Shown: piece after piece, positions 4,000 to 59,400 of the stretch
Layout of the letters: each line of letters opens with the position of its first letter
Position numbering within the stretch: position 1 is the stretch's first letter
From: Yuukianura sp. NJ FZ-2021
Lineage: Eukaryota
Length of the DNA: 64,000 nt
Reading direction: 5' to 3'
Assembly: GCA_046563655.1 (NCBI GenBank)
Contig: CM102285.1
Location: 1,860,001-1,924,000, forward strand
Notes under the pieces: generated by a model
Databases searched by the model: none
Told to the model about the DNA's origin: nothing
The model's input: only the letters and a program-made list of their open reading frames with translations
Made by a program: the position numbers and the translations under genes

Positions 4000-4149
4000 A
4001 TAACAAGAAATAGCGAATAGCCGCTTAAGACAGACAAGGAAACCCAACATTTCATTAGTATAGTATGTTTTTAAAATAGGCGTTTAGTTTTTAGCGTTCA
4101 TAAAACTAAAGAAATTCCTAGACTTTTGTTAGAATTTAAACATGTGATT

Positions 4150-5830: not shown

Positions 5831-6412
5831 AAAACTTGGTGTTTAGATATACGAATTTGCAGATATTTCAAATCCAATTTTGGAAATTCATTTTCCAAGA
5901 CCAACAGCCATGGTGGAGTATTGTACTGAGACAATTTTTGAAGCAAAAAGTGGAACACCACATGAATTACCATGTTTAAATTCAATTGCCGTAGTCACTG
6001 ACAGTCAACTAAACAAATAAATTTGCCCATGGCTTTAATGTAAAATACCAGTAAGTAAGGTAGTTTCCCCCCAACAAAATTTTTTTCATAGTATTTCGTG
6101 AATTTTTAGCACATAATTTTGACAACCCTGATAATAAGTAATAAGAAACGCAGCACGCTTAGTGGGGCCTCGCCTAGAACTATCACATCGTGAACACTAA
6201 TTTAAAATTTCAGTCAGTTTAAAAGAATTCCATTTCGTCTTTTGAACAATATCAACCTCAGCTACGATAAGGAATAGCCGCTTACAGACAGACAATTGAA
6301 ACAAAACATTCCATTAGTATAATATATTTTAAAAATAGGCGTTTAGTTTTTAGCGTACAGACAACCGAAAAAAATGTCTAGTCTAGACTAGAGTTTGAAC
6401 ATTGAAGTGATT

Positions 6413-7341
6413 TTATTGGTTCTTCCAAATGAATGAGTAGCTTTCATATTTAGGATGGTCGCTTGGGAGTTTATCGATTTTAGTTCTCATACAATCTCCG
6501 ACTCTTGGAAGGGCCTCGACCCGGGTCATGTAGCTGACCAAATTCGAGTGAGTTGAAATATGTGAATTCTTCAAATACGAATTCAGCATGGCCAACAAGT
6601 CGTAGAGAACAAAGTCAGCATAGGTCAACCGACTGCCAACAACCCAATTGTTCTGTCCAAGAAATTTTGAAAGTCGTGCCATTTGAACTGGCAGATTTTC
6701 CTGGAAATCTTTTAGCAGAGCTTTTTGCACCTCAATTAGATTTTGGACTCCTTCTGGCGGATAAACGATTTCGTAAAAACTGCGTTTGATGTCCGAAATT
6801 TGATCCAAAATGAGCGTGATACGCACTCGCTCGGCGGGAGTTTCACCATCCAAGTTATGTTTTTGAGCCAAGTACAGCAAGATAGCCATCGACTAAAAAA
6901 ATGGCAATCCAAAAAAGTGTAATCTCAGTAATTTAAAATTTCGAATAAGAAGAAAAAATTTATTTTGATTTCTTACTTGAGTCAGTTTCACATCGCCGTC
7001 AATCAAGTATGGTAAATTCGGAAAGTCAAAAACTTCCGCCATTTTGCTTTTGTCCTTTTCGTACCATTCTGCTGGATTCAGAATATCGTATTCCTTGTAT
7101 TCATATGGAGCGTCAGCATAAGCCAGCAGCAGTCGAATTGACACTTGACCTCTGATGTTCCAGTACCTTTTTTTTTTGTAAAAAAATAGTTTTCAAAATT
7201 TTGGCAATAATTTTACGAGGAAAACTAGATTAAAAAATCCTCGGTTATTCCAGAGACATAAACTAGACGAAGTAGAAGAAGCAATTGTTTGAATAGTTTT
7301 AATAGAAAAATCAAAATATCTTACACTAAAGTTGGTGCCAT
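6413..7341 (-). CDS. GSTM: Glutathione S-transferase, Mu-class-like (copy 3), 3 exons
   Basis: MAPTLV/YWNIRGQVSIRLLLAY...[10 protein letters not shown]; closely similar to copy 2, with a one-codon in-frame deletion in the N-terminal motif. Confidence 0.9.
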
Positions 7342-10124: not shown

Positions 10125-17800
<7,676 letters not shown>

Positions 17801-35400: not shown

Positions 35401-38400
35401 CAAATACCGCACAAACTTGGGAACTAATAGTAAAGCTTCCTCTTAAAAATAATATGATGTGTCCAGCACACTTTTTTGGTTTGTTGACGTTCGTTTTAAT
35501 AATAACAACTATGTACGGCCAACAAACCTCAAATTGGCGCCACAACTTGAACAATATAACCCGGGATTACTTGAATCCCCGCTGCTCAGTGTGTAGCTGC
35601 ATGCCGACCTTTGACCCTGTTCCGCTATCATCTTGGACTCCTTCAACTTATCCCAGGTACATCATAGCTCAAAGTCGACTTATGCACTACTTTGACTACA
35701 AAAGGTCAGAAGGCCATCTCTGGAAGGGAGAAGAGGACATTGGCCTGGTCTACTGCGAGTCATCATTTAGGTCAAAGGTCAACAAAAAAAATATGAGCGT
35801 GTTCGAATGGACGAGAAACGGGCGCAAGATGAAAGTCAAGTGCAAACGGGATGAATTCACTTACTACTGTAGAAATTCGAAAAAGGTCAATAGCCAGGGT
35901 GGTTTTAATTACAGTATACGTTTTGGTCAAAGAGTCTGGAGTGATGACACGACGATTTTGTCGAGATTGTGCATAGGATCAGAAGGTCAAGCTGTTTGGT
36001 CAGTGACGTCGTCGCAGTTGACCTTGAAACGAAGTCAATTGAAAACTATCAAGAAAAAGCTGAGAGAAATCGGATTTTCTTCCAAGAAAATGATCTACAT
36101 GCCCAAAATTTGCGCCAAGTTCAAAAACATAACGGCGACGCGGGACGCAAATATTTAGCTTAAATAAAGACGATCGAAATTTTTTTTTGAAAATATTATG
36201 TTAGTAGTCGAATGTATAAAATAAAACAAGTTATCTTTCCGTAATGTAAAAATTTGTGAATATTAGTGGGAGCACGCCATTGTGTCAATTGAATTGTATC
36301 AACTACATCGTGTCAACTAGAATTGAATCATCTGCTAAACTGCGTCAACGGCTAATTCTGTCAATATTCGTGGATACAAGCAGCCGTTCACAATAGTGCT
36401 TTAAATTTTCACTTTTGAAAAACAAGCACATTGCATATTAGAATTTACTGTTATTTAAAATTTAATTTAATATCTAGTAATAAATTTTGCGATAAGATAT
36501 TTCAAAAATCTCTTCGATCCAAAGTTGTTGTTTTTTTTTTCGTTTGTCACAAAACATCTAAATTTTTTGCATTCTATGTAATGGATTCCTTGCATAGACG
36601 AGTTAAGTATCGTCAGATGAATTTCTCGCTCCGTAAACTGGCTACTTAAGGTATTGCAGCTTCTACATTCGTAAAAGGATCCAAACGTGTTCATAAGTTT
36701 AGGGAAAACTAAAAAGACGGTCAAAGAGGTCAACCAGGTCAACCACAATAGATCATTGACCCAAAGCAGGACTTCGGTTCACACACGTTTTAAGAGGTGT
36801 GTGCAGATACGCTACGCTGTTGGCAAAAACTTTGTATACCGCCAGCAAATCAAGCTGCGTGCTCATAGTTTCTTCCACAAAGTTGACCTTGGAACAGAGT
36901 GAACTTAGAATTATCAGGAAAATTGCGTCTAAAAACTTACTAAATATTTATAGAAAATGGAAATCAGTGAACAACTGTGAACAGTGAAATGAAAAAAAAA
37001 ACGGCAGTAATAAGATAGATATATTAAATCGATTAAAGAAATATAACATGGTAGGTTTTGGAATAATTATGACTTTTCGTATAATTACCTTCTTAAGCTT
37101 AATTACTTTTTTTTCCTTCTTGAGCAATTCGGATTACAAATCCAGACTTTAGGGACACTTGAGCATTATCATAAGTTAATTGGAATTAATTACTTTTAAT
37201 AGAAATTTATGTAATTGCCATTATTTTCACACCATAACTATATCTACTACCACCGTATACGAATTTTGCGCCAAGTAGAAACCAAATACCAGTGTTTGTT
37301 ATGAATGCAAAAAGTACGCAATGGATCTGTCAAATATTTTTAGAGTTTCAATACTCTTACTTTTTCTTTACTTTTTACTTTTTATGACGATGAAAAAATC
37401 GATTGGCGCCAAAGTTTGACAAATGTCAGCGAGACTTAATGAATCCACGTAGTATTTTGGTTGGCATTACTGAATCAAATTACGAATGCATTAGTAATAA
37501 TTCATTCGCAATTGGCAATTCAGGTATTTAAATTACTTTAACAAAAGGTAAAACCTTAACAGAAAGCTAACTCCACTATGAAAATCACAAAAAAATTGCA
37601 ATTTTGAGCAATCAAAGCTTCAACATAGGTTTCAGCGTACACTGTACTTTTGCCATTGTGTATTCCCATCTGGCGCCATAGGTTCATCAATGTGGGACAT
37701 GGAGTATTTGATTAACTTTAGTGAAACCAATTGAACTTCGTCACAGCCAACATTTTTTGGCAACACTTGAACATTACCGCCAGAAACTGAGCATTCCATG
37801 AAACTAAATTTGTTATTCTGATTCACTCCTGCTCACAAACTGATAAAATGCTGGTCAAATAAAACTCCGCCAGAACTGCTACCCGGTTGCTCAGAAAACA
37901 GCAAAATGCGGTTTGTTACAAAATCCGAAGTATCGCTTCTTGCAGTTCTAGTTTTTAGAACAGTAAGTGCCGATTGGCGTAACAGTTTGGCGAATGACAC
38001 AAGCGACTACTTGAATCGACACTGTACTACTTGTAGCTGCCTGCCGACCTTTGACCCGGTTCCACTCAGCTCCGTCTCACGGCTGATCACCTCACAACGT
38101 AGCCCTCTCTTTATTAGTAAACTGACGTATCACTTTGACAGTATATGGACGCAAGACTGGTTATGGAAAGACCCAAACGAAGTTGATCGCATGCTCTGCG
38201 ACTTGTCATTTTCTTCAAAATACATAAAAAAGAAGTTTGTACTGCGCCTGAGCTGTAACACTGGCTTCTTGGATACGAAGTGCAAACATGACAAGTACAC
38301 TTACTACTGCAGGTCTAAAAAAGGAAAAAGTCAACAGAAGGTAAAGGTCAAAGGTCAACCTCCGGGTAAATATAATACATACACATTTCAAGTGGTATGG

Positions 38401-41400
38401 TCAGATGACACGACAGTGTTGGGCAGGTTGTGCGTCGGGTCGGAAGGTCACGCTGGTTGGTCAGTCACTTCTACCAAGAATGAATTAAGCAAAGGCCAAA
38501 TGAAAATTATTAAGAAGAAATTGCGGAAACTTGGATTTGATTCAAACAAAATGCTGAATCTTCGGAAAAGGTGCGACAAAATGAAACGAAAATGAAGAAG
38601 AAAATTTACGTTTTCCTCTGTCTTCCAGACCTCAGAAACGCTTGAGCGTTTCTGCATCATGAAAATAATTAGTAATTTACGTAATTAGTAATTCATGTAT
38701 AATTAGTAGTAATAATTGGCTGAGCTAAAAGAGTTCAAATGTTTCTCTTATACTTGAATACATGAGCATAGTTTACAATTGAAATAAATGTAATATTTTT
38801 GAATCTGGGAAAGGGAAATGATAAGTTGTGATTTCGCTTTTTCGAGTGTTTTCTTTTGCAAATTTGCGATAAAACCAATTTGCATGTGGAGGTGAGAAAT
38901 ACAAGAATTTTTATCGAAGATGTGTTTGTTTAAATGTTCAAACTGCTTGGACACCCACTTCAACCTCGGTTGATTTTGAAGCAAAAAAAAAAAAACTAAC
39001 CAAAATCGCATATCAAGAAAAAAATTTCAATTTCCAGACATTTTTAGTATTCTGTTAGACTGAAATAATAAAGCGCTGATTCCTCTTTAGCATCTGGACA
39101 TTAGTATCTCGAATTAGCAATTCAAGTGTGAAATTTGTATATAACTGGAACCACCTTTTTCCAAGATATTGTGAAGTACAGCAATAGAAAAAGCACAGAA
39201 ATACTGCTACCTAAAAACAATCACGATGGGTTCACCCAAAAACTCCGCAGCGTCGTTACTCTTCACTTTACTTTTTGTAACTACAATTGCCCAAGAACAG
39301 TTTGATTGGCGCCAAGGTTTGGAAAATGTAACCAGGGATTACATTCATCCACGGTGCACTACGTGTAGCTGCATGCCGAACTTTGACCCGGTTCCGCTCA
39401 ACACCGTCGCTCAGCAGCTCACCGCTCCACATTACACGCTTTACCAAAGTCAACTGATGGATCACTGGAACGCTGTGAGGTCAAAGGGGTTGTTATGGGA
39501 CGAAGAAGAAGATGCTGACATGGTCTACTGCGAGTCAACGTTTTGGTCCAAGCCTAGAACCGGAAAGCGTGTTTCTTTCAAATGGACAAGAAACGGTAGA
39601 GTTATGAAGATCAATTGCAAATTCATTTCCGAAAGCGTCGACAATTGCAAAATAAAAACACCAAGAAACCATGGCCATCCAGGTCAACTTCAAAACAAAC
39701 TCGACGAGGAACATTCCAGGTTCGCCTACAGTACTTACACTACTCAAATAGTTTGGAGAGATGACAGAACTCATTTGGTGCGATTCTGCATCGGATCAGA
39801 AGGTCATGCTGTTTGGGCACTCAAGTCAACTAAAACGACCTTGACAAAACGTCAAATGAGAATTATTAAGAAGAAGTTGAAAGAAATTGGATTTTCTGCT
39901 AATGGGATGCTGAATGTTCGCAAAAGGTGTGAAACCCTTAAAGGAAATAGAGTAAGCAACAAGAAGATGGAAATTTGAAATTCGGATTCAGTTTTATTTT
40001 TCACCAAACTACAAACAAAACATGGCTCAGAATGTTTGATAATATTTGGTAAAAAAAATGCTGATTCAGAATGCAAGCCCAGACGTTAGGTGCACTTGAG
40101 AATTAAAATTAGTTACTACTAAAATTAATCTGTTTTAATAAAAATTCATGAAATTAAAATTTCGTTCACTACATTATAACAAATCCAGACGTTTTCAACA
40201 CTTGAGCATTGATTAATTACTTGAATCAATTTGATTTAATAATAAAAATCCGTTGCATACCAATATTGGTCCGCAATCCCTAGCCGTTTACAAATTCTAC
40301 ACAAACGCAGAAACTAATAGTAAGTAAAACCTTCGTGTTGAATACAAGGTACATAGATTATTAATTAATTGTCGAAGTCTCTGAATTAATTTCTCTTTGT
40401 TCTTTTCTGCACAGCAGTTCGAATTAAAATACCAGACTGTAGAAAAAGTTGAGCACAATAATTAAATAGTTGAATTAAATTCATGAAATTGCAATTTCTC
40501 TCTTACCATCGCTATAAATGCGATCACCATTTACGAATTCTACGCCAATGTAGAAACCAAGCATCACTGCTTGTTATCAATACAAAAGTACACGATGGAT
40601 GTGTCAAATATTTTTAGAGTTTCAATACTCGCTTTACTTTTTACAACTACATACGGCGAAGAAAAGTTCGATTGGCGCCAAAGTTTGGCAAGTGTGAGGA
40701 AAGACTTCCTGAACCCACGTTGTACTACTTGTAGCTGCATGCCTACTTTTGATCCGCTTCCGTTCTCGTCCGCTGAGTCGCTGCTGATGTCAAAGCATCG
40801 TTTCCTTTTCTACAGTACGGAAATGTACCGTTTGAAATCTGCACTGGCAAAAATGTGGCTGGCTGAGGACGGAGAGCACATGGACATCACTCTCTGTGAA
40901 GCGTCTCATCAAGCCATGGCTAAGGGGGCTAAAACCAGTAGATACAAATGGAGTAGGAACAAGCGTATGATGAAGTTCAAATGTAAGTGCAACGAGCTAA
41001 CTGACCACTGCCGATTAAAAACTGTGCCCAGCTTATTGAAAAACTCCATTCAACACAACAGAACTGGTCAACCGGGTCAACCAACTCAAGGTCTGTCAGG
41101 TCAACCGTCATCGGGGTTGGACAATTCAAAACGAAGTTCTGAAGGTCAAACAAAGGTTGGATACATTTCATATGCAGCGGAACTAGTTTGGGCAGATGAC
41201 ACAGCAGCTCTGGTTAAAAACTGCATAGGTTCAGAAGGTCAAGCTGCTTGGTCAGTCACATCCACGAAGCTGACCTTGAAAAAAAGACAACTCAAAATAA
41301 TTAAGCAGAAATTGAAGGAAATTGGATTTTCTCCCAAGGGAATGATAGATCTTCGGAAACGGTGTGAAGCGGTTAAAAAAAAGGCAAACCACTTAAGCCG

Positions 41401-44400
41401 GAAGCTTTGGAAAGCACGAGTGAGAAAAACGTAGCCAAAGCAGGAAAACCCTTCTTCTTCTTTTTTTGTTATTGTTTCATTCTTTATATTTTTTGAAAAT
41501 GTTAGAACAGCGTAGTAGATTTTGGAATAATTAAACACTTAATTGTAACTTGTGTGTTCATTTACGTGCCAACTACTTATTTGTTCACTTCTGTGCAATT
41601 TGTATTACAAATCCAGACGTTTTCAACACTTGTGCGTTAATTAATCATTTGAGTCAATTCGTATTTAACAGAATTTATTTTTCACCCTTCATAACTCGCC
41701 TTTACTTTGTACACAGAAGTTGAAAATAGGTAACCACAAGTCACGTTTTGAAAACAAAAATGATGTGTAGTATAACAAAATTTGTTAGATTGTGGTTCTT
41801 CACTTTACTTTTGACGATTACCTACGCCAGAGAGAAATCGAATTGGCGCCAAGGTTTGAGCAATGTGACGCGGGATTATTTGAATCGGCGTTGTACAACG
41901 TGTAGCTGCTTGCCGGCATTTGACCCCGTGCCGATATCATCCGTGACGCTACCGAATACACCTACATACTACGTGTTAGTTCAAAGTACACTTATGTACT
42001 ACTATAACTATAGGCGGTCAGAAGGCTACCTCTGGGAACAAGTGGAGGACATTGAACTCTTTCATTGTCAGTCATCGTTTAGGGCAAAGGTCAAGAAAAA
42101 CAAAATCATCATTTTCGAATGGACGAGGAACGATCGTGTGATGAAGATAAAGTGCAGAAGAGATGAATTCACGTACTACTGTCGACACAAACCAAGGGTC
42201 CAAGGTAAATCTACTTCTGACTACAGCTCACTTACCGCTCAGATAGTCTGGGCAGACGACACGACGATTTTGTCTACATGGTGCGTAGGGTCAAAAGGTC
42301 AAGCTGTTTGGTCCGTCACTTCGACGCAGTTGACCTTGCGAAAGCGTCAATTGAAAATTATCAAGAAAAAACTGAGACAAATCGGATTTTCTTCCAAGAA
42401 AATGATTTTTCTATCAAAAATGTGCGCCGGGGTGAAAAACAAAACGGTAACATACGACGGAAAGAATGAGTTTATGCAGAAAAGTTTTTTGTTGTTGTAG
42501 TAAATAAGTTGGAAAATTTTAATAACTGTATTATGAATTTTTTTTTCTCGATGGATCATCATAATGGACATGTTGGAATAAATCTTGTAATCTGGACAGT
42601 CTAATGTTTTTACCTGTTTTATTTTTGTATATTTGCATCACAATTGCCAATGTTTTCAGTAACTGCACATTTATGCTGCGACAAACTGGCTGAGGGCATT
42701 CACCTCTCGTTGATTAGGCATGAGGATTTTGAAAATTTGAACCCCATTGAGCAGTAGTAGTAACACTCATGGCCCAGCATCACATTCAATCAATCTAATA
42801 TGGATCTATTACTTTTCCTTGTTTCCAATTTTCTGTTTGCTGTTACTGCCAGTGCGAAATCACATTGGCGCCAAAGGTTGAGCAGTACGAATCGTAGTTA
42901 TTTCAATTCACGATGTTACTTCAACCAAGAAAATGTTGAATCTTCGTCAACGATGTGAAAATTTCAAAAAACAAAAAACCATGCAACACGCAAGTTCATC
43001 ATAAGTTTGAAGAAATATTAACGATAAATTTCATATATGAATATAATTTTGAGTAAAAAATGATTAATAAAGTTTTTCGTGGTAGCGTGCAAAGTATTAC
43101 GGTGTGTAATGCGGCGCCAAATCTGAATTTACTTAATTTTGTGGAAATGAATTTGAAGTGCGTTACAACATTTTGAGTAACTAATTTTGAAAATTTAAAA
43201 CTTCCAATATAAACCAGTGTTTAAGGCATATTTTTTTTTGTCTTCTGCGTCACGTGACTAACCGCATTTGCAGTACTGTTGTCCTTGCGAGTCAATGAGA
43301 ATTGTTCTACCTTGGACAATAACTGGCGTCAAAGTGACGGGTTTTTGCGACTGCGAAATTTGAATTGTCGTGGGTTTTTGGTTACCAATGAAATACGGTG
43401 GATTTTGAATTTGGGTGACTTGGTAGCCGACTTTGCTAGTCGGTTGTGGCTGTACTTGTTGTTGCTGCGTAGTGTGCGTAGTAACGGTCGTCACTGTGCG
43501 AGCTGCACCGTTTGAATTCACCGTGTTTCCGTTTCGATCATAGTAAACGACTTGTTGGCCGACGTTACCGGTCGGGAATTGCGTCCCAACGATGACGTTT
43601 GCATTAGGTTGCTGTTGTACACCTTCTGGTTTGGCCCATCCCGCAGCATCGCATTTGCCCAACATTCCTTCTTCTGGAAGCCATGCACCTACCGCCTTGC
43701 CCATCAGTGTCCCGTATGCTGACCACGCTTTGCTCGCAGCTCCAGAATCCACTGGTTGCGGTCCATCTCCCTTCCAGACAGTGTAGCCATTGGTGTTGCA
43801 GAAGCCAATGAACGCCTCAGGCGATATGGCATTCTCTGCAGTTCCAAGGACCTTTGTAAACCCATAAACTAGATACAAAATTAAAAAATAGTAGTAAAAA
43901 AGTAGTAAAAAGAAGTAAGAAACATAAAAAAGCGGATGTAGTGAATAGTTTATACTATTTATATCCCTATACTACTATGACACATACAATATTATAATCC
44001 TAGTGCAATAGAAAACTGTGAATGAAACTACAGAAAACGAGTTAAATCATAAACCGCAAAACGCAAAATTAACCAAAACGTATCAATTCAAATGACTTAC
44101 GAGCATCGCCAAACATCGAGGCCTCACTCTATGGAGAAATAAAAATAGTTTATAAGTTACTGAAGTCACTAAATCCAATGAAAACTTCCTCTTAAAAAAT
44201 GCTTGAAACTCATTTTAAAAGAACATTTAACTAAAAAAGTTGTTGTAAATAATGTACTTACGGCTGTAACAATAGCCATGACAAGAAACAGAGCGTTGGC
44301 AAACATAACGAAATCGGATGTAGGATGGAAATATGTAAGAGAAAAGATTACGACGGTAGTCGGTATGATTGAATTCACATTTTTTGAATGCTATTTGTAT

Positions 44401-47400
44401 CAAAAATTTATCAACGTTAAAATTCTTAATTAATTAGTAATTAAAGTTGAGGTTGAAGACCTCCTGATTTTCCAATACGCTTTTCAAAAATGTAACTTCC
44501 TGGTGTTCTAAATTAACTCTATTAATGGTCGACGCTTCACGTCTTTCGTACTTGATCTTTTGAGGATGATAAATCTCATAGGTATCAGCAAACCTCAATT
44601 TTAAACTCTTAACTAACCACTTTAAAGAATTGCGATGTCTAGGACCTTGTATGGGATACATGGAAGCAATTGGAATTGGAAGGAGCCGCACACGCTTGAC
44701 CCGAATAATGCTGATTGAGTTTATTGACGAATATTTGATTATCAATGTTTACGATATTAGGCAAGGGAATCTAACTTGCGAATCTTCAATTGCTACGTCT
44801 AATTCTTTTTTAAAGTCGTGTGAATTTGGAATTGAAATGTGTTTTTTTTCTATTGAATTTCAAGTGCGTTCCTCTGGGATCCAGAAGATAGTTATGCGCA
44901 AGGGCAAAATCTCTTTCCGTTTGAGTCAATCAGAATCTGTTTCCCTCTCTCAACAACCAAAGTCACCGTTACAGTGGTTTGCTTAATAATTTGTTCGTTG
45001 TTACCGACAGCTGGAACTCTGTTGCCATGTTCATCAATGACGTAAATGATTTCGGTGCTGCCGCCCTTGACTGGGACTCGGTTGCCATGTTCATCAATGG
45101 TGTAAATGATCGTGGTATCACCAGCATTTCCACTTACAGGAACTCGGTTGCCATGTTCATCAATGGTATAAATGATTTCGGTGCTGCCGCCATTGACTGG
45201 GACTCGGTTGCCATGTTCATCAACGGTGTAAATGATCGTGGTATCACCGCCATTACCCTTCACAGGAACTCGGTTGCCATGTTCATCAATGGTGTAAATG
45301 ATCGTGGTATCACCGCCATTACCCTTCACAGGAACCCGGTTGCCATGTTCATCAACGGTGTAAATGATCGTTGTATCACCGCCATTACCAGTCACAGGAA
45401 CTCTGTTGCCATGTTCATCAATGGTATAAATGATCGTGGTATCACCGCCATTACCCTTCACAGGAACTCGGTTGCCATTTTCGTCAATGGTATAAATGAT
45501 TTCGGTGCTGCCGCCATTGACTGGAACTCGGTTGCCATGTTCATCAACGGTGTAAATGATCGTGGTATCACCGCCATTACCTTTCACAGGAACTCGGTTG
45601 CCATGTTCATCAATGGTATAAATGATTTCGGTGCTGCCGCCCTTGACTGGGACTCGGTTGCCATGTTCATCAATGGTGTAAATGATCGTGGTATCACCTG
45701 CATTGCCTTTACCAGGAACTCTGTTTCCATGTTCGTCGATGACGATCGTAGTATCACCGCCATTGCCCTTCACAGGAACTCGGTTGCCATTTTCGTCAAT
45801 GGTATAAATGATTTCGGTGCTGCCGCCATTGACTGGAACTCGGTTGCCATGTTCATCAACGGTGTAAATGATCGTGGTATCACCGCCATTACCCTTCACA
45901 GGAACTCGGTTGCCATGTTCATCAATGGTATAAATGATTTCGGTGCTGCCGCCCTTGACTGGGACTCGGTTGCCATGTTCATCAATGGTGTAAATGATCG
46001 TGGTATCACCTGCATTGCCTTTACCAGGAACTCTGTTTCCATGTTCGTCGATGACGATCGTAGTATCACCGCCATTACCCTTCACAGGAACTCTGTTGCC
46101 ATGTTCATCAATGGTGTAAATGATCGTGGTATCACCGCCATTACCCTTCACAGGAACTCTGTTGCCATGTTCATCAATGGTGTAAATGATCGTGGTATCA
46201 CCGCCATTACCTTTCACAGGAACTCGGTTGCCATGTTCATCAATGGTATAAATGATTTCGGTGCTGCCGCCCTTGACTGGGACTCGGTTGCCATGTTCAT
46301 CAATGGTGTAAATGATCGTGGTATCACCTGCATTGCCTTTACCAGGAACTCTGTTTCCATGTTCGTCGATGACGATCGTGGTATCACCGCCATTACCCTT
46401 CACAGGAACTCGGTTGCCATTCTCATCAATGGTATAAATGATTTCGGTGCTACCGCCATTGACTGGGACTCGGTTGCCATGTTCATCAACGGTGTAAATG
46501 ATCGTGGTATCACCGCCATTACCCTTCACAGGAACTCGGTTGCCATGTTCATCAATGGTATAAATGATTTCGGTGCTGCCGCCCTTGACTGGGACTCGGT
46601 TGCCATGTTCATCAATGGTGTAAATGATCGTGGTATCACCTGCATTGCCTTTATTAGGAACTCTGTTTCCATGTTCGTCGATGACGATCGTGGTATCACC
46701 GCCATTACCCTTCACAGGAACTCGGTTGCCATGTTCATCAATGGTGTAAATGATCGTGGTATCACCGCCATTACCCTTCACAGGAACTCTGTTGCCATGT
46801 TCATCAATGGTGTAAATGATCGTTGTATCACCGCCATTACCAGTCATAGGAACTCGGTTGCCATGTTCATCAATGGTGTAAATAATTTCGGTACTGCCGC
46901 CCTTGACTGGAACTCTGTTTCCATGTTCATCGATGGTGTAAATGATCGTGGTATCACCGCCATTACCAGTAGCTGGAACTCTGTTTCCATGTTCATCAAG
47001 TGCGTAGATGATCTGACTGCCTTCTGGTACTTGTACTTTATTTCCATTCTCGTCGATGGTCCAAACGTAGTGGGTCGTTGTAGTTGTGCTGGAGCCGCCA
47101 GTAGCTGGAACTCGGTTTCCATGTTCATCAAGTACGTAGATTATCTGACTGCCTTCTGGTACTTGTACTTTATTTCCATTCTCGTCGATGGTCCAAACGT
47201 AATGGGTCGTTGTGGTTGTGCTGGAACCGCCAGTAGCTGGAACTCGATTTCCATGTTTATCAAGTACGTAGATGATCTGGTTACTGCCTTCTGGTACTTG
47301 TACTTTGTTTCCATTCTCATCGATGGTCCAAACGTAGTGGGTCGTTGTGGTTGTACTGGAACCGCCAGTAGCTGGAACTCGGTTGCCATGTTCATCAAGT

Positions 47401-50400
47401 ACGTAGATGATCTGGTTACTGCCTTCTGGTACTTGTACTTTGTTTCCATTCTCATCGATGGTCCAAACGTAGTGGGTCGTTGTGGTTGTACTGGAACCGC
47501 CAGTAGCTGGAACTCGGTTGCCATGTTCATCAAGTACGTAGATGATCTGGTTACTGCCTTCTGGTACTTGTACTTTGTTTCCATTCTCATCTATGGTCCA
47601 AACGTAATGTGTGGTTGTGGTTGTGCTGGTACCAGTAATTGGAATGCGGTTTCCGTGCTCATCTACTCTGTATTCGCCTTGCCAGGAGATGCTGCCTCCT
47701 CCTGTTGGGAATTCAATTTGGCCTCCCTGACCGCCTAAAGAGAGTCCACTGCCGCCGGTTTGAAATCCACCATGACCTCCAGAAGTCTGCCAAGAGATTT
47801 CCTTTCCACCGTTTCCGCTACTTCCCCATGAGACACCACCAGGCAGACCACCAAGTCCACCCTGGCCACCACTTGTTTGCCAAGAAACTCCGTTTCCGCC
47901 TCCACTTTGCCAAGAAACACCACCGTTTCCACCACCGCTTTGCCAGGAAACGCCACTGTTACCGCCGTTTCCTCCGCCGCTTTGCCAAGATACACCATTT
48001 CCTCCGCTTCCGCTTCCGCCCCAAGAGACTCCGCCAGAGAGGCCACCAGGTAGACTGCCGGATATACCGCCGGAAGATACACTGCCAGAAATACCTCCGG
48101 TTAGACCTCCAACTGGAACGAAATAATCAATGCAGTTTTATAATGCGCTACTTAACCTTCTGTATCTTTATACAGTATTGTTCCGCGAAAAGTAGACACA
48201 AACAAACTCAAAAGTTTGGTAAACTTGATTCTAAATTTCTGGAAATTTCAGATTATGAAAAAATATTTAGCCTCAGACAGCTTTACCAACAAAAGTCTTT
48301 CCAAGTTTGCGCATAATCTGAGTATAGCTGAGTAATTTTGTAGAATTTTTTTTTTATAAAGGTATCATTTGTGTCAATACTTCGCAATGAAATTGGCAAA
48401 GCATGCTTTTCTAGAACAATTGCAACTCACTTGATTTGGAAAACGCAGCAGCATCACCCTGTTGGGAAATGGAAACAATTTTTTTTTAAAGTTTTGTTAG
48501 ATTAAATTTTTAAGAAATTTTAAATCTAATCTAAAGCATAATTGGTTCGTCCGAACACAGAATTACGACATTCACATTTCTTCAGTTATACGAAAATAAG
48601 TTTTTTTAAAAAGAATTTCTTAATTTAATCTTTACCTAACATTCAATTCAATTTTTTAAAAACTTACCGCAACTACTATAGCCAAAACGCACAAGAGTGA
48701 ACGAGTTACCATAGTCTTGGATTTGAATTCAGTCTCTCTTTTTAGTTTTGAGAGACAGTTGAGTCTATCAACTGGAATGAACTTGGTCAGTCGCAAGAAT
48801 ATTTGAACAAGAATTAATCGGTTGCTAACGTGTCACAACTCCACTTAATTGCCACGATAATCGTCACAGTTCCTTGTTTTAATTGGTTAATCGCTTTACC
48901 ACATGGGGTGGTTATGCGATTTTTGAAATTTCATCGTTGCAGGTCTAACCACCACTGTTACCAAGCAGCTTAGAAAGGATTATGCACTGTAGGTGCGGTT
49001 TTTGCAAAACTCATGGTGTATCCGTGATTTCAAGGCGGTTGCTACGGTTAAGTTAAAATAATCTCCAATTTGAGGGCATTTAGAAAAAATGTTGAGAAGA
49101 GATGCACTCGTTTAATTAAAAAAAATTAAAACCAGAATTTTTATGCCAAATTTTTGGTTGTAGTTTTCCATTGGTTTTTTGTTGTTACTCGTCCGATCTT
49201 TTACAATTTCCGCGTCTCTTTATCCAACGCACCGCATACCACTGAAAATGAAAATTTCAAAAAAAAGTCAAACAACTTTGCAGAACTTTTTTGAAATTGG
49301 TTTCTATGATGACTTACGCGTTAGAGCCGTCGTCTCCATCACCTTTGAGGGAATTAGCCATGAAGACAGCGGAAGAATACGAAAGTCGTTTTTGTCGTTT
49401 CTGTTCCGGGAGATTTCCATTCTCCGCCTCTACTGCTCTAAATTTTGATTTAAAAAAACACAATTTATAGCTTTAGAAAAGTGAAGAAAAGTCAATACAT
49501 TTTTCAAAAACTCGAAAACTGAGAGTACATTGGTGGGACCAAACTAAAAGCTCAAACTATTCAACAGTAAAGTTGTTGCAAAAATTTCGGTTTTTGAATT
49601 TTCGAATTTGTGGAGTGTCACCAAGGTTGATAAAGAAAGAATTACTTTTCCATTAACAGGTTAGGCAATAACTTGAGTTTTAAGTTTTTTGGGAAAAATT
49701 TTCAAACTGAATTCACCTAGTTTCAATCGCGGTTGGTATGGTAAACGGATTAAAAAATTCAGAGAGATGGCTTTTGAATTGGGAAATTCAAAGTAAAGAA
49801 AAGATTAAAAGGTAGAAAAACAACAATTAGAAAACAAAAAGAGAAATATAGAAAACAAGAAGAAAAAATTGTTTGAGTCAATATTTTTCAAAACAGGGCT
49901 TATTGCCTAACCTGTTAAAGGAAAACTATTTTGTTGCTATAGTAACGTTGAAATTCATGTGATATGTTGAGTATCACATGAATTTCGAACATTCCAAGGC
50001 AACTAAACAAAAAGACACAAGAGCTTTCTAAGGTAGTCTCACGAGCGGTTTTTTCAATTTTTTTTGCGATATTTTTTAGTGGGGCGGATTGTTCGGTTTC
50101 CAAGGAAATAAAACTTTATAAAATTCGTACAAAGGTTGGTTGAGGTAACAATGATGTGTTACTTGTAACCAGTGTTCAGTATTTTATGCAAATCAACTAT
50201 TTGCCATAGAGTTGCATTGAATTCGTAGTAATTATAAGGGTAAAATTTGTCGATTCCATTTTACAATCCAAAAACCAATCTACACCATTAGCCCCATTAT
50301 TGGCTACACTGGGTGGTTACAATGGAGGAATTTGACTTTGTACTCCGACCGACGGAAAACGTTGTCAGAGCAAAGTTAATAACAAACAATCCGCCCCACT

Positions 50401-53400
50401 AAAAAATATCGCGAAAAAAATTGAAAAAACCGCTCGTGAGACTACCTTAGAAAGCTCGTGTGTCTTTTTGTTTAGTTGCCTTGGAACATTCCAAATAATT
50501 TGAACAGTACTTCGCTTCGCGTGTCTGTCTGCTTTTTGCATTGCCTCGTGTAATTCCCCTCCCATTTTGAGATGAGTCACCATTGGTTGATTCTGGAACG
50601 CGTTCTGCTGGGAATGATTTGTACTTGAGAAATTCTCCAAGTTCTACTTCCGTGTCATACATTGATGTCAACATGCCGCCAAAAGTTGGCGGGTAAATTC
50701 GGTTTTCGCTGAACTTGAATACCGTTTCATTCATGGCATACATAACCAATACACCTGGTAGCCCTGCATCTTCATCCAGCTCAACCAATCCCGTTCCGTT
50801 TCGGGCTCGAATGATGCTGATGTCGGTATTTGCACAATCCAATTTGCATTTCTCTGTTAACAGAAAAAAAATATTTCAAAAATACTTTTTGAGATTTTAG
50901 AAACTTCGAAAAAAAAGTGGAAGTTTTGGAACCAAAGAAAAGCGGGATAAGATTTTGCCGAGTTTTGCGCAGAAACAAGTCTCGTTTTGGATCCATTTTG
51001 GCATACTGTGCGCATTCTTGCATTTCGTTTTTCCCTAGAAAAATTTTGTCTTTGTTCGTAAAAGTGTATTTCTCCATAAACGAATCTCCGTCTTGATCTT
51101 CAAAGTGGTATTCATTAACTCCATGCAAATCAGGTGCAAGTGCGACGCAGCGACGATGAATGTCACCGCGAAACGAACGCAGTTCACCGTTTAGCACAAA
51201 AACGTGAGTTTTGCCTCCTGCTAGTGGAATTTGAGCAGGTTGATCTGCGTAGCTTGTGTAAAGATCAATCGTCTCTGAAATGACGACGACGAATGGAATG
51301 TTTGGAGCTTTTTGCCACATTGCCCAGGGAAGGAGTTTAATGTACGATTTGGCGGGACGGGCCAAACATTGACCATAACCAAATACTATGTCTTCATAAA
51401 TTTTATTGGAGTTGTATGTGATGAACCTGAAAAAGTTTAAAAATTAAAATTTTTAGAAAACTTTGAAAAATTTATGACTTTCAAACCTACGGCAAATTAC
51501 TTAGAAACTAAATCGGAATTTATTTTCTAAATAATTTCAGCATGTTCGAGGAGGGGAGAATAAGAAATGTCGTGCACAAAATTCTTGGGAAAATTTGTAT
51601 TGAAATTTTAAAATATCACAAAAATTTTTGTTTCTAAACAACTTGCTGTTGGGAATTTTTTTTTTTACATTTTAAATTTTGATTGGTTGACTTACGCTCC
51701 GTTGAATCTGAGTTGCTTAGAACTAAATTCCTTCATGGCTTCCGCATCTCTGCAAATCTTTTCCTCTCCCGGATTCTCTACACTGCAGTACTCGATAAAC
51801 GAATTTTTCTCATGTCCAGTTCCCGCGCAAATTTGAATCTGCAAAATCGTCACTGCGCCCAGAATTATCCTCAAGTGCGACCTCCACATTGAATCCAACA
51901 ATTGAAAAAAATTTACAAAAGTAACAAAAATTAAAAAACGTTATCAAACGTATGTTCCTGGTTATTCGGAATTTTAATTCCTTGAAACCATATTGTCTCA
52001 CTTGCTTAGTTTTTAATTAACTTAATTACCCACTACTTCAACAAAGATAAGAATTAACAAAGTCCATAAGCTAGGTTGAATAGAACAATTTACTTTTTAT
52101 TGCTACTTTCTTTTTCAGTACTAAAATTGTTTATAGAAAACAATTGCATCAGTGTAGCCCAGTCCTTTTAAATTTCCAGCCTTCGGCACACGCCCGATTT
52201 CTTCAAATCCAAACTTTCTCCAGAGTTTGATCGATGCTTCATTCGTGACATAAACCAAGTTAAAGACGCTTGCTTTGTAACCAAGGTCAGGAGCCACTTG
52301 AATAAACTTTGGAACCAAGTATGTAGCTACTCCTTGACCTTGCCAATCTTCATGCACTATGAAACCGGCATTGCAAATGTGGGAACTCCTCCCGGGGTAA
52401 TTCGGCTTAACATAGAATCCACCGATGACTTGACCTGTCTTGACCTCTCTTAGTACAAATGTTTCATGAGATAAGTAATAAGCTCTGAAATCATCCAGAC
52501 TGTTCATGACTTCTTGTGGATATGTTTGACCCTGGTCTAAAATTGTTTTGAAAATTGAAAATAGTTGAGGCACGTCTGCTTCTGCGTAGTGGTCAAATTC
52601 AACTTCAGTGCCTGACCTCAGTTGACCTTTGACTGGCAAGTAGTGCAGTCGCTGTTTCCCTTTGTTCTCAATCACATATGCTGCCATTCTAAAATGAATT
52701 TGCTTTGTTAGATACTATTTGCTGTTTGTTTTATATTTTTCACTTTGTTATGTATATTAATTAAATCACGGTTGAAAGAAACACTGACGAGGTGTACTTC
52801 ACAAGTAAAGAATGAATAGATTTATGGCAACTGTTACAAGCGGGGCTGGGTTTAGTTGTAAGGTTTTTGCATCAACTTTTAAGAACATGAGATAATGGAT
52901 ATCTAGTTCCTTGACCTTTGACACGGCACGTGAAATGTACTCTTCTGTGTTTAAAATTACCCGCGCAAATGAAAATTTTGAACCTTTTACAATGAAGAAT
53001 TTCTGTGGTTGCTTTAATTAACTTTTCTGTTGTTCTGATTTTCAGTTACAACCAGAAGAAAAGGAAATTTGCCTGAGGTCATGTGATTTGCAGAGAATGA
53101 CGCCATTGCACTGTAATTCTGTTGCCTCTTTTCACTTTAACCTAACATTTTCAATTTCCATTACGAAAGTTCATATCTCAAAAACAAATTTCCTAAATTT
53201 TAGGTGCTGCTATTTTTGATCACTGTGATTTGGTGGAGTACCTGATTTCTCAGGTTAAAAACTAAAAACTTATTAACAAAAACGTTTATTTTTTACATTA
53301 AGTTTTTTGACTAAATTTAATTAATAAAATGCGTTGTCATAAATCATATTTTTTTAAAAAAAATTTCATTAAGTTTTTGTTGTAATTGTATGTAGGGTAG

Positions 53401-56400
53401 TGCCGTTAACGCTTTAGACAAGGAGCGACGGTCACCCCTGCATTTGGCTGCTTTTCGAAACGGTTGGAAAACAATGCGAACTTTAATGAGACTCGGAGCT
53501 TCGACGAGCGTAAAGGACAACGACAACAGAAATGTTCTGCACGCCATTGTCATTCATGGTGGCGAGTTGGACAAGTTCCTGGATGACGAAATTTGTGTAA
53601 CCTTAACTTTTTGAAAACTTTTGGTTTAAATTCAATGTCTTACATTAGTTTTCTGTTTCTATCGTGCATTAGTTCTTTACAGGCTTCTAATTTGCTTTCA
53701 GCAGAGCAAAATACTTACTTAAGCATCTTCGCTCTGGAAAAGTCACTACCCTACTTTTGTGACAAAATGATAATTATCATTTTGTCACGAAAAATAGGTC
53801 ACAAAAAATTTCAATTTCATTTAAATTAATTAAATTGAAATTGAAATTTGGTTCAATAGAAATTAAACAAAAAATAAAATATTTAGAAAGTTTTTCATTG
53901 TAAAAGTATTTTTTTTAACAATGATTTTTTTTTCAGACTGAATTCATTCCAATCTTGGAAGAAAAAGATAAAAATGGATTTACACCTTTGCATTACGGTA
54001 TTTGGCAATATTCAATCTAGTTTTACTAACACAACTTTTAGTTAAATTAGTTAAAATTAATAGTTCCTAACTTAATTTCTGTTTTTTTTATAATAGCTGC
54101 AAAACACGGACATATTAAAACTGCTGCCAAACTTTTAAAGCTGGGAGCAAATGTGGCAACTAAAAACAACGAAGGCGAAAACGTTTTCCACTTGGCTTGC
54201 CGGTGACGCTTCATAAATTTTTAGGCAAAATTTTGTTTTCTTCGAGTTGGTTTGTTTTAAAATTAGGAATTGTTTAATTTTTTAAAGTTTTGGACGCGTC
54301 AACATTATCAGCTTGATTTTGAAAACCGAAATTAACAATTCCATTATCAACGAGGGAAACGGAAAGGGCTTGACTCCACTTCACATTGCCAGCACTGAAG
54401 GTCAACTTTAATAAATATTGATAACTATAATAATATTAATTAAAATAAATGTATAAATAAAATGTTAATAATTTTCTTCTTAGGTCATCTGCGTGTGGTA
54501 CAAATACTTTTGAAAAGAGGAGCCATTTTACACCGTGACCACGACGGCCGGACACCGCTTCACTTGGCATCTAAAAATGGACACAGAGACACCATGAAAC
54601 TCATTCTCAATGTCCATTCTCACTTGCTTGACCAAATTGACAAAGATGGGGTACCTGCTCAATTTTTTCAAAAACTCAAAATTTTGATACAAATTTTCAA
54701 TTTTTTTGATTTTTAGAACACAGCTCTTCATGTGGCTAGTCAGGAAGATCAACCAGCAGCGGTTGACCTTCTGTTGACCTCCAACTGCTCGTTGACCTAC
54801 AATCACAATGGATTCAGTGCTATTGACTTTGCTCTGCAAAACAAGTTTATGGGCGTGGCACTTGTAATGGTCACGCACCCAGCAAGGTAAAATTTACTTT
54901 CAAAAATGTTACAAATTTCAAAAATATCAAAATTTTGAAACATTTTTGGTTACAAGGGGAGACGAGGTACTGGGCATGACAACTGGGAAGTATCCGTCAG
55001 TGATGCTGGGGCTAATTGCAACTATGCCACAAGTCGTTACTGCCGTTTTGGATACTTGCATTACCAAGTCAGAGACAAAAAGCGACAGCGAGAGCTTCAA
55101 TGTAACAAAAAAAAGTTTGCACACGTCAAAACTTCAAAAATTTTGAACAAAATTAAAATTTTTTATGTGCAGATAAAGTTTGATTTCAAATGGCTGTCAT
55201 TGGTGGAACCAGAAAAATGTGAAGAAACTGCCAGCCAAGATGCAGCTTCCAGTCATCGCCGAGAGAAAGCAGATGAGAGCTTTGCCAGCGCTACGGAGAG
55301 AAAGCATTTGCCAATTCTAAATGTTTGGGCAAAAACATATTTGAAAAAATAATTTTTGAAATTTTCTAATTCTTAAAATTTGGTTTTTAGGGAATGGTTT
55401 CCTATGGGCGAGTGGAGCTCCTGAGTCACGAACTTTCTCTGAAATATTTGCAAATGAAGTGGAACGCTTATGGGAAGTACATTAACTTGGCGCAACTGAT
55501 TCTGTACTCACTGTACCTGGCATTTGTAACGCATTTTGCTGCGTCAGTTGTGCGTCATGACAATGACGTTGTAGATGACAACGACGAGGAAGAGCAACAT
55601 ATACGACGCATGCGCATGTTTGGCCATTTCAACGATACTTACACTGCATCTACTTTACATGCCGTAAGTAACCAAGAACTAAAGCAGAAACAAAACAAAT
55701 TCCTTCCGAGGCCCAACCACAAGTGTATTTTGGGTTTTTGAAATACATCGAAATTATGAACTTTCAAAACTTTACTTTTCATTTTTCTTTCTAAAATATT
55801 TTGAAAAAAAAAAATTAAATTAAACATTTTTTGTTTATAGGTTACACATCAGCAAACAATGATGCACAAACTCAATGCACTTGGGATTTTCTTGGTGGCG
55901 TTTTTGAATCTTGCACGTGAAGCTGGAAATTTGTATCAACAATCTCTGAAGTATGCTTTAGACACTGGGAATTGGTAAGCCAGAGACTGATAACTAGATG
56001 GTGCGAATGTCTAAAATTTTAAAATTTTCAAAAAATCTTTACTTTCAAAATTTAAGGATTTTCTGGGTTATGAACGGCGCATGCTTGGTGATGGTGGTAC
56101 AGGCTTTCTCACTATCTAATGACGATTCTGCAAATGCAAACACACCAGCGGCTTTGGCAGTATTTCTGGGATGGTTCTACTTGCTTTTGTTTTTGCAGCG
56201 GTAAAATTTCAAAATTTTAAAAAGTAAAAAATTTGACGTTAACTTGATACTAAATAAGTTTTTTTTTCAAAAACTAGATTCGACGTGGTTGGAATTTATG
56301 TCGTAATGTTCCTGGAAATTCTTCACACGCTTCTGCGCGTCCTCATGGTTTTTTCAATTTTAATTGTCGCTTTTGGCTTGGGATTCTACATTCTACTGTC

Positions 56401-59400
56401 AGCAGTAAGCTTAATTTCATGATTTGGTCAAAAAATTTCAAAATTTCTTAAAAAACTAAAGAACTGAAAAATCTAAAATTCTTACTCCCATTTCTTTACA
56501 CTTTTAAATCAACGCAGGGTCACCACATAGCTTTTGCCGGCATTCCGTCGTCGCTCATGCGTACATTCTCAATGATGCTTGGTGACATGGACTACATCAA
56601 CACTTTTGTCAATCCGTACAACTGTGTCGGAGAACCGGACCCGCCGGAATCAAGTTTCGTACCGATGAGGACCTCCTATGCTTCGACATCAGCAAACGAA
56701 ACGATACACGCAACATGCTGTGCCGAAAGTCGAACGGTTTGCAGCGATCGCCGAAGACTTCCGTATCCAATTGCCAGTTTCGCACTTTTGGCCGTTTTTA
56801 TGGTTTTCATGCCGATTTTACTCATGAATTTGCTTATCGGTTTGGCTGTTGGCGATATTGAGTCTGTTAGAAGAAATGCCCAGTTGAAACGGTTGGCAAT
56901 GCAGGTTAGTCTCAAGTTAAGTTTTGAAAACGAATTGAAATAGTTTTCGATTTTGAAATTTTAAATTTTAGGTTCAGCTTCATACAGCTCTGGAGAAAAC
57001 AATTCCGAAATTTATTTTGCGAAGAGTCGACAAGAAAGAAGTGATCGAGTATCCGAACGCCACAATGAAAGCACGACGCGGCCCAATTGACTACTTGTTC
57101 AAGTGGTTTCAGCCCAAAACAAGAGTCGGTGCGTTCAAGTACTTTTCAAATTTTCAGCTTTTGTACTTTTCCCGCTCTTTTTCATTTACATTTTGAAGTT
57201 TCCCGGTTCCATTCAAAATTTTGAATCCTCTCGTTGCCTTCTGCACTTCAACTCAAAATCAGCTTTCCAGTTTCAGCAAATGAAAATTTCTTTTTGTTGA
57301 AGCCCTTCCCGCTCGCTCTGTTAAAAAGCGGGAAATGAAGCGTCAGTTTGAAAGAGTGTGGCGGGAAGCAACAAATTTGAATTCCCTCGTCGATCCTAAT
57401 TATTAGTCTCACTTTGCCCCATTGAGAAAACAGCGGGAGGGAGCGTAGATGGGAAGTCATAACTCATTTTTGAATTAAAAGTCTCAACCTAAACCGTCAT
57501 GAGCATGAAACCCTACTTGACAAATGACTTTTCATTTCAACCATTTCCTCATTCTCGCCACTTTCTTTTGAATTGGAATTGACATTACGCCGGAAGAGGG
57601 GAACTGCAGGAGGTCAATTCAGGATTTTATTATTAACTATTATACAGGTTGAGCAAAAAGTTTCATTTCCATTTTTCAAAAAGTTAAAAGTTAAAACTTT
57701 TTGCAACTTTCAAATTTCGCAAATATTCTTCCTATCACAAAAATAACGGGAGCACGCTAGATCAAAGGTTTACACAAATCCGAAAATTCAAAACTCGCAA
57801 AACTAAACAAACCTTGCAACATTTGAAGCGCCAAAAATCTTCCTTCGCAGCAAATAGTTGTACGATTTTTTTGTGAAAACTTTGAACTCTTTTCTTAAAA
57901 AGCTTGCTTTTCAAAAAAATCTTTTTTTTTTATTTTCAAAGAAGTATTCAGAATTTTTTGAACAACGCTGTATAGGTTGAATGGGGAGAGAAATTTGAAA
58001 CGGAACGCATAATTAGGATCTTTTCATACAGTAATTTTGGCATCAATTTTTTCAAAAAAAAATGTATAAATCATGAACTAGGGAAGTTTTGAATTCATAG
58101 AAAACTGAGTGAGAGTCTTTTGAAAAAGTGGCGCTCAAAAAAACATTACCTTTGAGTAAATTTTGCTACAAATGAAAAAAAAGAAAATGTAGCAAGAGAA
58201 AGTGGATTCTCAGTGATCGAGACTACACTTTTTCATATCAAAAGGAATAGGATAATATCATCTCAGTCATGGGAAAAAAATGCTTTCATAAAATGTGCCC
58301 AGCAAACAAGAAAAACTAAAAAAATCTGGAAAACTAAATTTTATTGACCAACAATTAATTTAATGAGATAGATTAAAGTTTCCCGAAAACTTCGTTCTTT
58401 TCTTTCATGTTTTTGCACAACCTGGCTAATGTGAATCAAAAAAAGTCAGGATTAGTCAAAATTGATTTGGAAATAGAAAATCAAATTGCACGTTTTCTTT
58501 TAAAACTTTCTAAAACTTTTTCTTTTGATGTTTTTGCATTGGATACGTATCTAATTGTATTGAAATTTTCTGTTTCTTTTCTTGTTCGAGTTTCATTACG
58601 CACTTTGTAAACTCCTCGTTTCAAGTACTACAATCTGTAGAGTTGTTCAGTTGAATTTCAAGCGAGAAAAAGAACAAGGATTTGAAGATTTAGTTTCATT
58701 TGTCAGGTCAAGATTCTATTGACATTTTCCTCGCGTCCGACCCCTTTGCTTACTTTTCCTTCCTTTTGTTACCCCCACCCTCCCCCTCCCCCATTGAAAC
58801 TGAAACTGAGCTATAGAAAAGTTGCCATTTGCCTGCTGGTGGTGGGGCAGCCAGTCTGGTGGCTCCTATCCACCACCACCCGGAGGGGCATCATACATCA
58901 ACTTCCTTTCAAAAAAAAACTAGAAAAAAATCCATCTTCATTCGCATTCAAGCCACTGCTCTCTCTTTATTTGCTTTGGAAAACTTTCTCCTTTTGATAC
59001 TTTCCTTTCAATATCTCTCTCTCTTGCCTTTTCTCAAGAAAAAAAAAAGACTTGAAAAGCAGTTTTTGGCAAAGAGGAAGGAGGATGTTCAAATTTCTAA
59101 AAAATGGAAAAACGGATAACGACCTTATAGGAAACATAATTTTCAAAAAAAAACGTGCACTACGACTCTCCCGCTCTTTTCAAACGGAATCGTAAACCAT
59201 TTTGCGTAAAGAGTTTCTCTGTTGCAAGCAGTTAGCTTTGTACATTCCCTGCATAGTTTTTTTTTTATAAAGGACGAAAAAGCTACAAATCATTTTTTTC
59301 ATTTTCAAATTTTTCCTGTTCTTGCAAGATTGTGTTCAAAGTGTCACCGTTTTTAAAATTTGTGTTTTTCCCGCCATGCTCAATTTGTCATTTTCAAAAA

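Follow-up and report, generated by a model that had tools for sequence, protein, structure and literature searches.

Introduction

What does a long minus-strand tandem repeat in the genome of Yuukianura sp. NJ FZ-2021 encode, and how did an animal come to carry dozens of units that read like the YD repeats of bacterial RHS proteins? The repeat lies in a stretch of 64,000 nucleotides (contig CM102285.1 of GenBank assembly GCA_046563655.1, positions 1,860,001 to 1,924,000), which I call the window and number from its first letter. Here I report that it belongs to a genuine three-exon animal gene, hereafter the target, whose product of 1,097 amino acids has a signal-like start and carries an array of 42 hairpin-like repeat units that lies far beyond chance. 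The points at issue are where this array came from, whether it belongs to the RHS/YD family, and what the protein may do outside the cell.

A spliced gene on the minus strand

The window is about 36% G+C with spliced genes and is eukaryotic in character, and its content points to an animal with a compact genome. An earlier reading made from the letters alone (the sequence-only reading) had placed here a secreted protein of about 1,100 amino acids and held that the true open reading frame (ORF) was much longer than the 651-residue entry in a program-made list. The frame is indeed longer: from stop to stop it spans 44892..48137 on the minus strand, or 1,081 codons, against 651 residues for the ATG-started entry. 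The length of about 1,100 residues, however, holds for a spliced product and not for an unspliced one. Because the ATG at 48712 is not continuous with the long frame, and unspliced translation from it ends after 18 codons, two introns are needed to join them. The resulting model has three exons, 3,294 nt in frame, and canonical GT..AG sites at every splice junction, and it corrects the gene from 651 amino acids to a spliced 1,097. Its parts are as follows.

48668..48712, minus strand: exon 1, 45 nt from the ATG, encoding MVTRSLLCVLAIVVA, with donor GTAAGT and a hydrophobic start that resembles a signal peptide by eye
48431..48458, minus strand: exon 2, a micro-exon of 28 nt (GDAAAFSKS plus one base; acceptor CAACAG, donor GTGAGT) that links exon 1 to the long frame
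44892..48112, minus strand: exon 3, acceptor TTCCAG, holding the remaining coding sequence, with the stop at 44892-44894
44720..44725, minus strand: AATAAA, a candidate polyadenylation signal about 170 nt past the stop

The plus strand of the array is also open (44925..47738, 937 codons), as is often the case in tandem repeats, and this invites the explanation that the gene is not the one described: the array might be a non-coding minisatellite that is open by chance, or the plus-strand ORF might be the coding one. The pattern of codon differences speaks clearly on this point. When the 42 repeat cores are compared pairwise in the minus frame, 3,054 of the 5,932 codon differences are synonymous and 2,878 non-synonymous, whereas the same cores read in the plus-ORF frame give 582 synonymous differences and 5,350 non-synonymous ones, again of 5,932. 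Diversity among the repeats in the minus frame is 2.5/2.2/4.8 by codon position, and the invariant D, G and N of the repeat unit each use two codons. The minus frame is under purifying selection, and it is because the synonymous variation among the cores favours it that I take the minus strand as the coding strand; the same pattern argues against coding by the plus-strand frame, which is a by-product of the repeat. The minus frame also starts from an ATG exon, is spliced at canonical sites, and has both a paralogue built on the same plan and homologues of its tail. The explanation by a minisatellite or a plus-strand gene is extremely improbable. The earlier call thus stands: the gene is coded on the minus strand, and the N-terminus of its product looks, by eye, like a signal. 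Scans of the window with Rfam and for tRNAs found no RNA genes.

Forty-two hairpin-like units

Exactly 42 units match D[EK][HN]GN[RK], at a spacing of 19-25 residues, which is the number that the sequence-only reading had given. The rest of its outline was borne out as well: a Gly/Ser/Trp segment of about 145 residues, then five dimers, then some 31 units of 20-22 residues in a higher-order pentamer of 104 residues, and a CxC end. From the N-terminus onwards the mature part of the protein is laid out as follows.

47685..48110, minus strand: low-complexity segment rich in Gly, Ser and Trp, residues 26-167 (about 145 amino acids), with 8 [VI]SW[QG] motifs
46953..47684, minus strand: hairpin units 1-11, residues 168-411, one leader followed by five 45-residue dimers (THYVWTIDENGNKVQVPEGS + NQIIYVLDEHGNRVPATGGSSTTTT)
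44997..46952, minus strand: hairpin units 12-42, residues 412-1063, 31 units of 20 or 22 residues with the consensus TTIIYTIDEHGNRVPVKGNGGD
44895..44996, minus strand: C-terminal tail, residues 1064-1097, EQIIKQTTVTVTLVVERGKQILIDSNGKRFCPCA, one longer hairpin and the CxC end

Tandem Repeats Finder (TRF) reports a period of 135 bp in the dimer region (5.0 copies, 95% matches) and of 312 bp across units 12-42 (6.0 copies, 91% matches), the latter corresponding to the five-unit, 104-residue higher-order repeat; a shorter period of 33 bp lies within the Gly/Ser/Trp segment at 47876-47966. Since a given unit most resembles those at a distance of 5 or 10 units, for the most part at 98-100% DNA identity, the array has expanded recently. 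The copy number of units that are so nearly identical depends on the assembly.

The unit can be written T-x-Y-T-[IV]-D-E-H-G-N-R-V ... G. D-x-x-G-N is present in all 42 units, Tyr stands at position -3 in 33 of them, and position -1 holds Ile, Val or Leu instead of Tyr. Every unit has a DEHG, DENG or DKHG turn, with His in 34 of the 42. This periodicity fits one amphipathic beta-hairpin per unit, consisting of a strand (IIYTI), a turn (DEHGN), a second strand (RVPV) and a Gly-rich loop, with I/Y/I and V/V on one side and T/T/R/K on the opposite one.

Without its signal the protein has a mass of about 113 kDa and an isoelectric point of 5.1, and is rich in Gly (18%), Thr (12%), Ile (10%), Val (10%) and Asn (8%). 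It has only two Cys, both in the terminal CPCA (the protein ends ...FCPCA). Among its side features, the 1,097 residues include no N-x-S/T sequon, although Asn makes up 8%, Thr 12% and Ser 5% of them, and the five GGSSTTTTT runs of the dimer region resemble O-glycosylation sites. RTX-like calcium loops were considered and dropped (GNGGD does not fit the consensus GGxGxD, compared by eye), as was an ice-binding role, which had nothing in its favour.

A small family with a common tail

The origin of the array becomes clearer from the next gene downstream, a paralogue with a single such hairpin.

43258..44306, minus strand: neighbouring paralogue P0002, 228 amino acids, with exons 44306-44262, 44128-44101 and 43868-43258

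The target and P0002 have the same exon plan: the first exon is of 45 nt, the second is a micro-exon of 28 nt whose phase also agrees, and the third is long. P0002 has one YYDRNGNTV hairpin and a tail that reads ...ILIDSQGQQYCKCG; this tail (VTLTPVIVQGRTILIDSQGQQYCKCG) is 50% identical to that of the target over 28 residues. Homologues of P0002 exist elsewhere (P0156-P0158, 245-275 amino acids), and the tail of P0156 is 42% identical to that of the target over 26 residues. P0002 and P0156-P0158 share a conserved N-domain (ENAISPEAF...KCDAAGWAKP), middles rich in Gln and Pro, and a Cys-rich end; the N-domain of P0002 has two Cys and no match in Pfam or NCBIfam. The pattern [VI]T[VL]T.V...G[KR]..L[IL]D..G..[YF]C.C is found in the tails of the target, P0002 and P0156, whereas P0157 and P0158 retain just the Cys-rich end. 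P0156 has TTYTIDQFGRYVDSNGRLI, and P0002 and P0156 carry one or two hairpins of the TYTID..G or YYDRNGN type. Unlike these proteins of 228-275 amino acids, the target is without the N-domain and has the Gly/Ser/Trp head and the 42-unit array in its place. I was unable to find any relative of the P0002 family in prokaryotic genome contigs.

The target is a member of a small unnamed family of secreted-looking proteins that have in common a 5' exon plan and a C-terminal hairpin-CxC tail, and this tail is the module that defines the family. Because P0002, which matches the target in exon plan and tail, has only one such hairpin, the array probably grew by tandem amplification of a hairpin that was already in the family. 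This growth to 42 copies in the target is the simplest history; the N-domain was either lost from the target or never part of it.

Likeness to RHS/YD proteins

No orthologue of the target was found in a word-indexed search of 5.8 billion proteins or in an exhaustive search of 1.84 billion representatives, and RHS/YD proteins are the sole detectable sequence relatives of its array. The word-indexed search gave four matches among 7,999 candidates scored, all of them RHS proteins with identities of 25-27%. From the exhaustive search came 1,312 matches at E-values of 1e-3 or below (313 at 1e-10 or below, 11 at 1e-30 or below), the top one having an E-value of 9e-64 and 32% identity in long in-register stretches. 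A family scan took in 25 of the top 150 of these, P0008 being left out, and detected PF05593 (RHS_repeat) in 24 of the 25, at 162-1,002 bits, and DUF6531 in 19 of those 24; among the RHS-type matches scanned, identity to the target never exceeded 32%. In a BLASTP alignment with P0007 (31% identity over 884 residues) YT[IV]D-E-H-G-N-R-V falls in register with YTYD-E-N-G-N-L-V, the consensus lists of target and RHS units agree in period and key positions, and a profile-profile comparison of the units (hhalign) gives a probability of 87% with an E-value of 4e-6.

Because repeats inflate E-values, controls were run. The real array matches 146 of 148 RHS-type proteins, a set drawn from its own matches and thereby biased, with a maximum of 253.5 bits. 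When residues were permuted identically in every unit, so that composition and period were kept, 29 of 30 controls had no match and the remaining one had a single match (78.6 bits); the reversed array matched none of the 148. The likeness to YD/RHS hairpins that the sequence-only reading had pointed to therefore appears real at the level of sequence, in view of these controls and the in-register alignments.

The RHS/YD repeat (PF05593; bacterial Rhs proteins, Tc-type toxins and the teneurin YD shell, PF25023) has units of 21 residues in the RHS matches, against 20 or 22 in the target, and the register common to both is T-x-Y-x-[YI]-D-x-x-G-N-[LVR]-[VT] ... G. The differences are nevertheless several. 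The second Tyr of the 'YD' is Ile or Val in most target units, a Pro lies in the second strand, and the loop between hairpins is Gly-rich where that of RHS/YD proteins reads T-D-P-x-G. Target units are nearly identical to one another, whereas natural RHS units are degenerate, and, unlike bacterial RHS, the target is a spliced eukaryotic gene, and its fellow family members carry one or two hairpins each.

Could the target nonetheless truly descend from a bacterial RHS/YD gene, acquired by horizontal transfer, or of an animal YD-shell gene, and fold as a closed or partly closed YD shell? That its sole detectable relatives align in register over 600-880 residues speaks for such a descent, as does the extent of the hairpins (about 880 residues), which is comparable to the 909 positions of the Pfam teneurin YD-shell profile PF25023. 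Teneurins, moreover, are reported to have originated when a bacterial YD toxin was transferred (PMC5851990). Pfam and NCBIfam scans of the target, however, found no DUF6531, no plug, no RHS core with autoprotease and no toxin or cargo domain, whereas most of the bacterial matches carry DUF6531. Curated RHS profiles do not match, identity among the RHS-type matches stays at or below the 32% given above, and AlphaFold2 built no shell even with RHS rows in the alignment. The near-identical units, together with the two introns held in common with a single-hairpin paralogue, argue for local amplification. Descent from either kind of gene, with a closed or partly closed shell, is very unlikely on this evidence.

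The one scanned match without PF05593, P0014, is a Thr-rich, secreted-looking protein of 1,311 amino acids with dozens of TTDEAGNTIPV repeats and no Pfam family. It is 39% identical to the target over 393 residues and has the motif DE.GN..PV in common with it; its period is 11 residues and it has no hydrophobic strand. In the literature, no publication was found that contained peptide strings from the target and the neighbouring paralogue, and nothing relevant to secreted or adhesive RHS tandem repeats in invertebrates was among the matches listed. The earlier description of the protein as novel holds in that no orthologue was found, but it does not extend to the kind of repeat, which is not a new one.

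A possible secreted hairpin polymer

What, then, might such a protein do? The explanation I favour, tentatively and at somewhat less than even chances, is that the protein is secreted and serves as a structural or adhesive polymer of beta-hairpins, with cross-links made at its CxC end. A hairpin carried in one or two copies by members of the family would have been tandemly amplified and would either have converged on the bacterial YD repeat or share with it a very old common origin. Since it has no plug, RHS core or cargo of the kind that YD shells have, the product would form no closed toxin cocoon. Once secreted, its hairpins would stack next to one another as an open beta ribbon or solenoid, giving stiffness and self-association, and the resulting sheet would have a hydrophobic face that must pair, curl or stick to something. 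The Gly/Ser/Trp head may be flexible and provide cohesion or adhesion. The two terminal Cys could form intermolecular disulfides, with other copies of the protein or with the product of the neighbouring paralogue, and so yield an extracellular structural or adhesive material, to which the many His residues of the turns may add metal-mediated cross-links. The metal binding and the role in cuticle, egg coat, spermatophore stalk or glue that the sequence-only reading proposed are likewise putative.

Several points pull the other way. The set of 148 RHS-type proteins is biased, as noted. A hidden Markov model (HMM) of a single RHS unit gives about 0 bits per unit of the target (in total -21.4 bits with the HMMER null2 correction and 28.4 without it) and is not specific, given that 1 of 100 unit-permuted controls outscored the target at 50.6 bits. 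PF05593 is unmatched by the whole protein at E-values up to 1 and by single modules at E-values up to 10, and none of the NCBIfam YD/RHS models, including TIGR01643, matched at E-values up to 10. The proposed function is read from the architecture of the protein. Finally, structure prediction gave no confident fold: an AlphaFold2 run on 15 units (three modules, self-alignment of 4 rows) returned a mean predicted local distance difference test (pLDDT) of 29.4 and a predicted template modelling score of 0.16, with 314 of 314 residues below pLDDT 50, and a run on 932 residues with 18 RHS rows returned 38.5 and 0.22, with 867 of 932 residues below 50. On these models the array could be disordered. 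In sum, the repeat unit looks YD-like as a sequence, and membership of the RHS/YD family is not established.

The extended beta-sheet of the sequence-only reading is not borne out either, for both runs stay below pLDDT 50 almost throughout and the 932-residue model contains local hairpins only. At nearly every unit DSSP assigns to this low-confidence model two strands of 3-5 residues joined by a five-residue turn, in agreement with one hairpin per unit. The most confident part of this model is the tail hairpin (pLDDT about 68). Neither run produced a shell, a barrel or a propeller. A complex prediction for two copies of the last 81 residues scored 0.21 against a mark of 0.32 and counts neither for nor against dimerisation through the tail, and the ESM Atlas offered no usable match for the target or P0002.

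These models bring in a different explanation, namely that the repeat region is an intrinsically disordered and probably O-glycosylated, mucin-like spacer, whose 'hairpins' have no stable structure. The pLDDT values of both runs are in line with it, and so are the abundance of Gly, Thr and Asn, the TTTTT runs in the dimers, and the presence of the DE.GN..PV motif in P0014, which is itself Thr-rich and linker-like. Low pLDDT is, however, expected for an orphan protein with a shallow alignment. Ile, Val and Tyr make up about 23% of residues and alternate strictly within each unit, core positions are kept through synonymous change, and the match to RHS proteins is driven by the order of residues within the unit, not by composition. 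I consider a disordered spacer unlikely.

Another set of explanations keeps the hairpins and closes them. The units might form a series of small closed barrels of 5-6 hairpins, resembling beta-flowers, or hairpin pairs might form blades of an NHL-like propeller, and the protein would then be a multivalent lectin-like or lipid-binding protein and not a fibre. The Pfam family PF21786 (Bflower_3, the six-fold beta-flower) scores 58.3 bits on the whole protein, over a cut-off of 34, as a sum over 7 stretches. The beta-flower is described by Durairaj et al. (2023, PMC10584680) as a barrel of 96 residues and ten short strands, with loops of alternately 4 and 9 residues and [DNEQ]xxG at the hairpin tips. 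This geometry matches the unit of 20-22 residues, the DEHG turn and the five-unit module of 104 residues, and beta-flowers (PF21784-PF21786, clan CL0395) resemble the target in their [DNEQ]xxG tips, in having one short turn and one longer loop, and in using about 19-21 residues per hairpin. The target differs in having no C-terminal hydrophobic helix or lipoprotein signal, and in carrying 42 consecutive hairpins where beta-flowers are one small bacterial domain. More damaging, single 104-residue modules score 21.8 and 21.2 bits, and because they stay under the cut-off of 34 the pass of the whole protein is a sum over repeats. AlphaFold2 built no barrel from three modules (pLDDT 29), no standalone proteins of 57-182 amino acids resembling the module were found, and the five-unit period may reflect DNA amplification alone.

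For the propeller, the evidence is that designed Pizza propellers (for example 3WWA and 3WW9) were the sole match in a sequence search of the PDB, with an E-value of 1e-8. Pizza propellers are derived from the NHL repeat. Their 42-residue blade aligns with the 45-residue dimer of the target, and [IV]YV.D..GNRV is found in both. The score of 36.5 bits, however, includes a bias of 27.7, no NHL family was matched in Pfam scans of the whole protein or of its modules, and no propeller was predicted. Closed barrels or propeller blades are thus decidedly unlikely. As to whether the array matches a known family, pairwise searches and phmmer do find RHS proteins and Bflower_3 passes as a sum, but no curated RHS/YD model matches and the modules reach 21-22 bits against 34.

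Surroundings within the window

The hairpin gene and P0002 are not the only secreted-looking proteins encoded here. On the plus strand, 35196-42500 holds five tandem single-ORF paralogues of about 250-320 amino acids with signal-like starts and the motifs DWRQ..., RC(T/S)(T/V)CSC(M/L)P(T/A/N)FDP(V/L)P and KKKL(K/R)(E/K/Q)(I/L)GF. No Pfam match was found in the two of the five that were scanned, and these paralogues are a second cluster of lineage-specific secreted proteins adjoining the target.

Both sides of the interval from 34.5 to 53.4 kb are bordered on the plus strand by exons encoding ankyrin repeats (32461-34472 and 53396-56940), with an Ion_trans exon at 56452-56940. Either this is one TRPA-like channel gene with an intron of about 19 kb that holds at least nine nested genes, the target among them, or the cluster lies between two separate ankyrin genes. 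Further away, 2312-6892 on the minus strand has three tandem and closely similar exons encoding GST C-terminal domains (one confirmed by Pfam, with a mu-class look by eye), and 11539-16426 on the plus strand has exons of a cation channel of the four-domain type (Ion_trans at 14505-15089, E-value 6e-23), NALCN-like by eye. A 626-codon open frame at 1-1878 on the minus strand runs off the window and has no Pfam match; its membrane segments resemble, by eye, a divergent channel of the ionotropic-receptor type.

Implications

The boldest form of the favoured explanation is that an animal lineage made an open-ended, cargo-less 'YD ribbon' de novo, in which one hairpin of a small secreted protein was turned into 42 near-perfect copies, converged with RHS/YD proteins in period and motif, and came to serve as extracellular material. 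I regard this as unlikely. Were it true, the protein would be a natural and almost idealised beta-hairpin polymer with no described counterpart, in which the His turns and the CxC end would give metal and disulfide cross-links.

Beyond that, the target and its relatives define an unnamed family of secreted-looking proteins, and the gene would be a clean case in which YD-type hairpin arrays arising through local amplification and convergence can be set against descent from bacterial toxins. If the array folds, the design of beta-sheet materials would have a natural template in its near-perfect hairpins of 20-22 residues. For the animal itself, the target may encode a constituent of cement, egg coat, cuticle or another invertebrate secretion.

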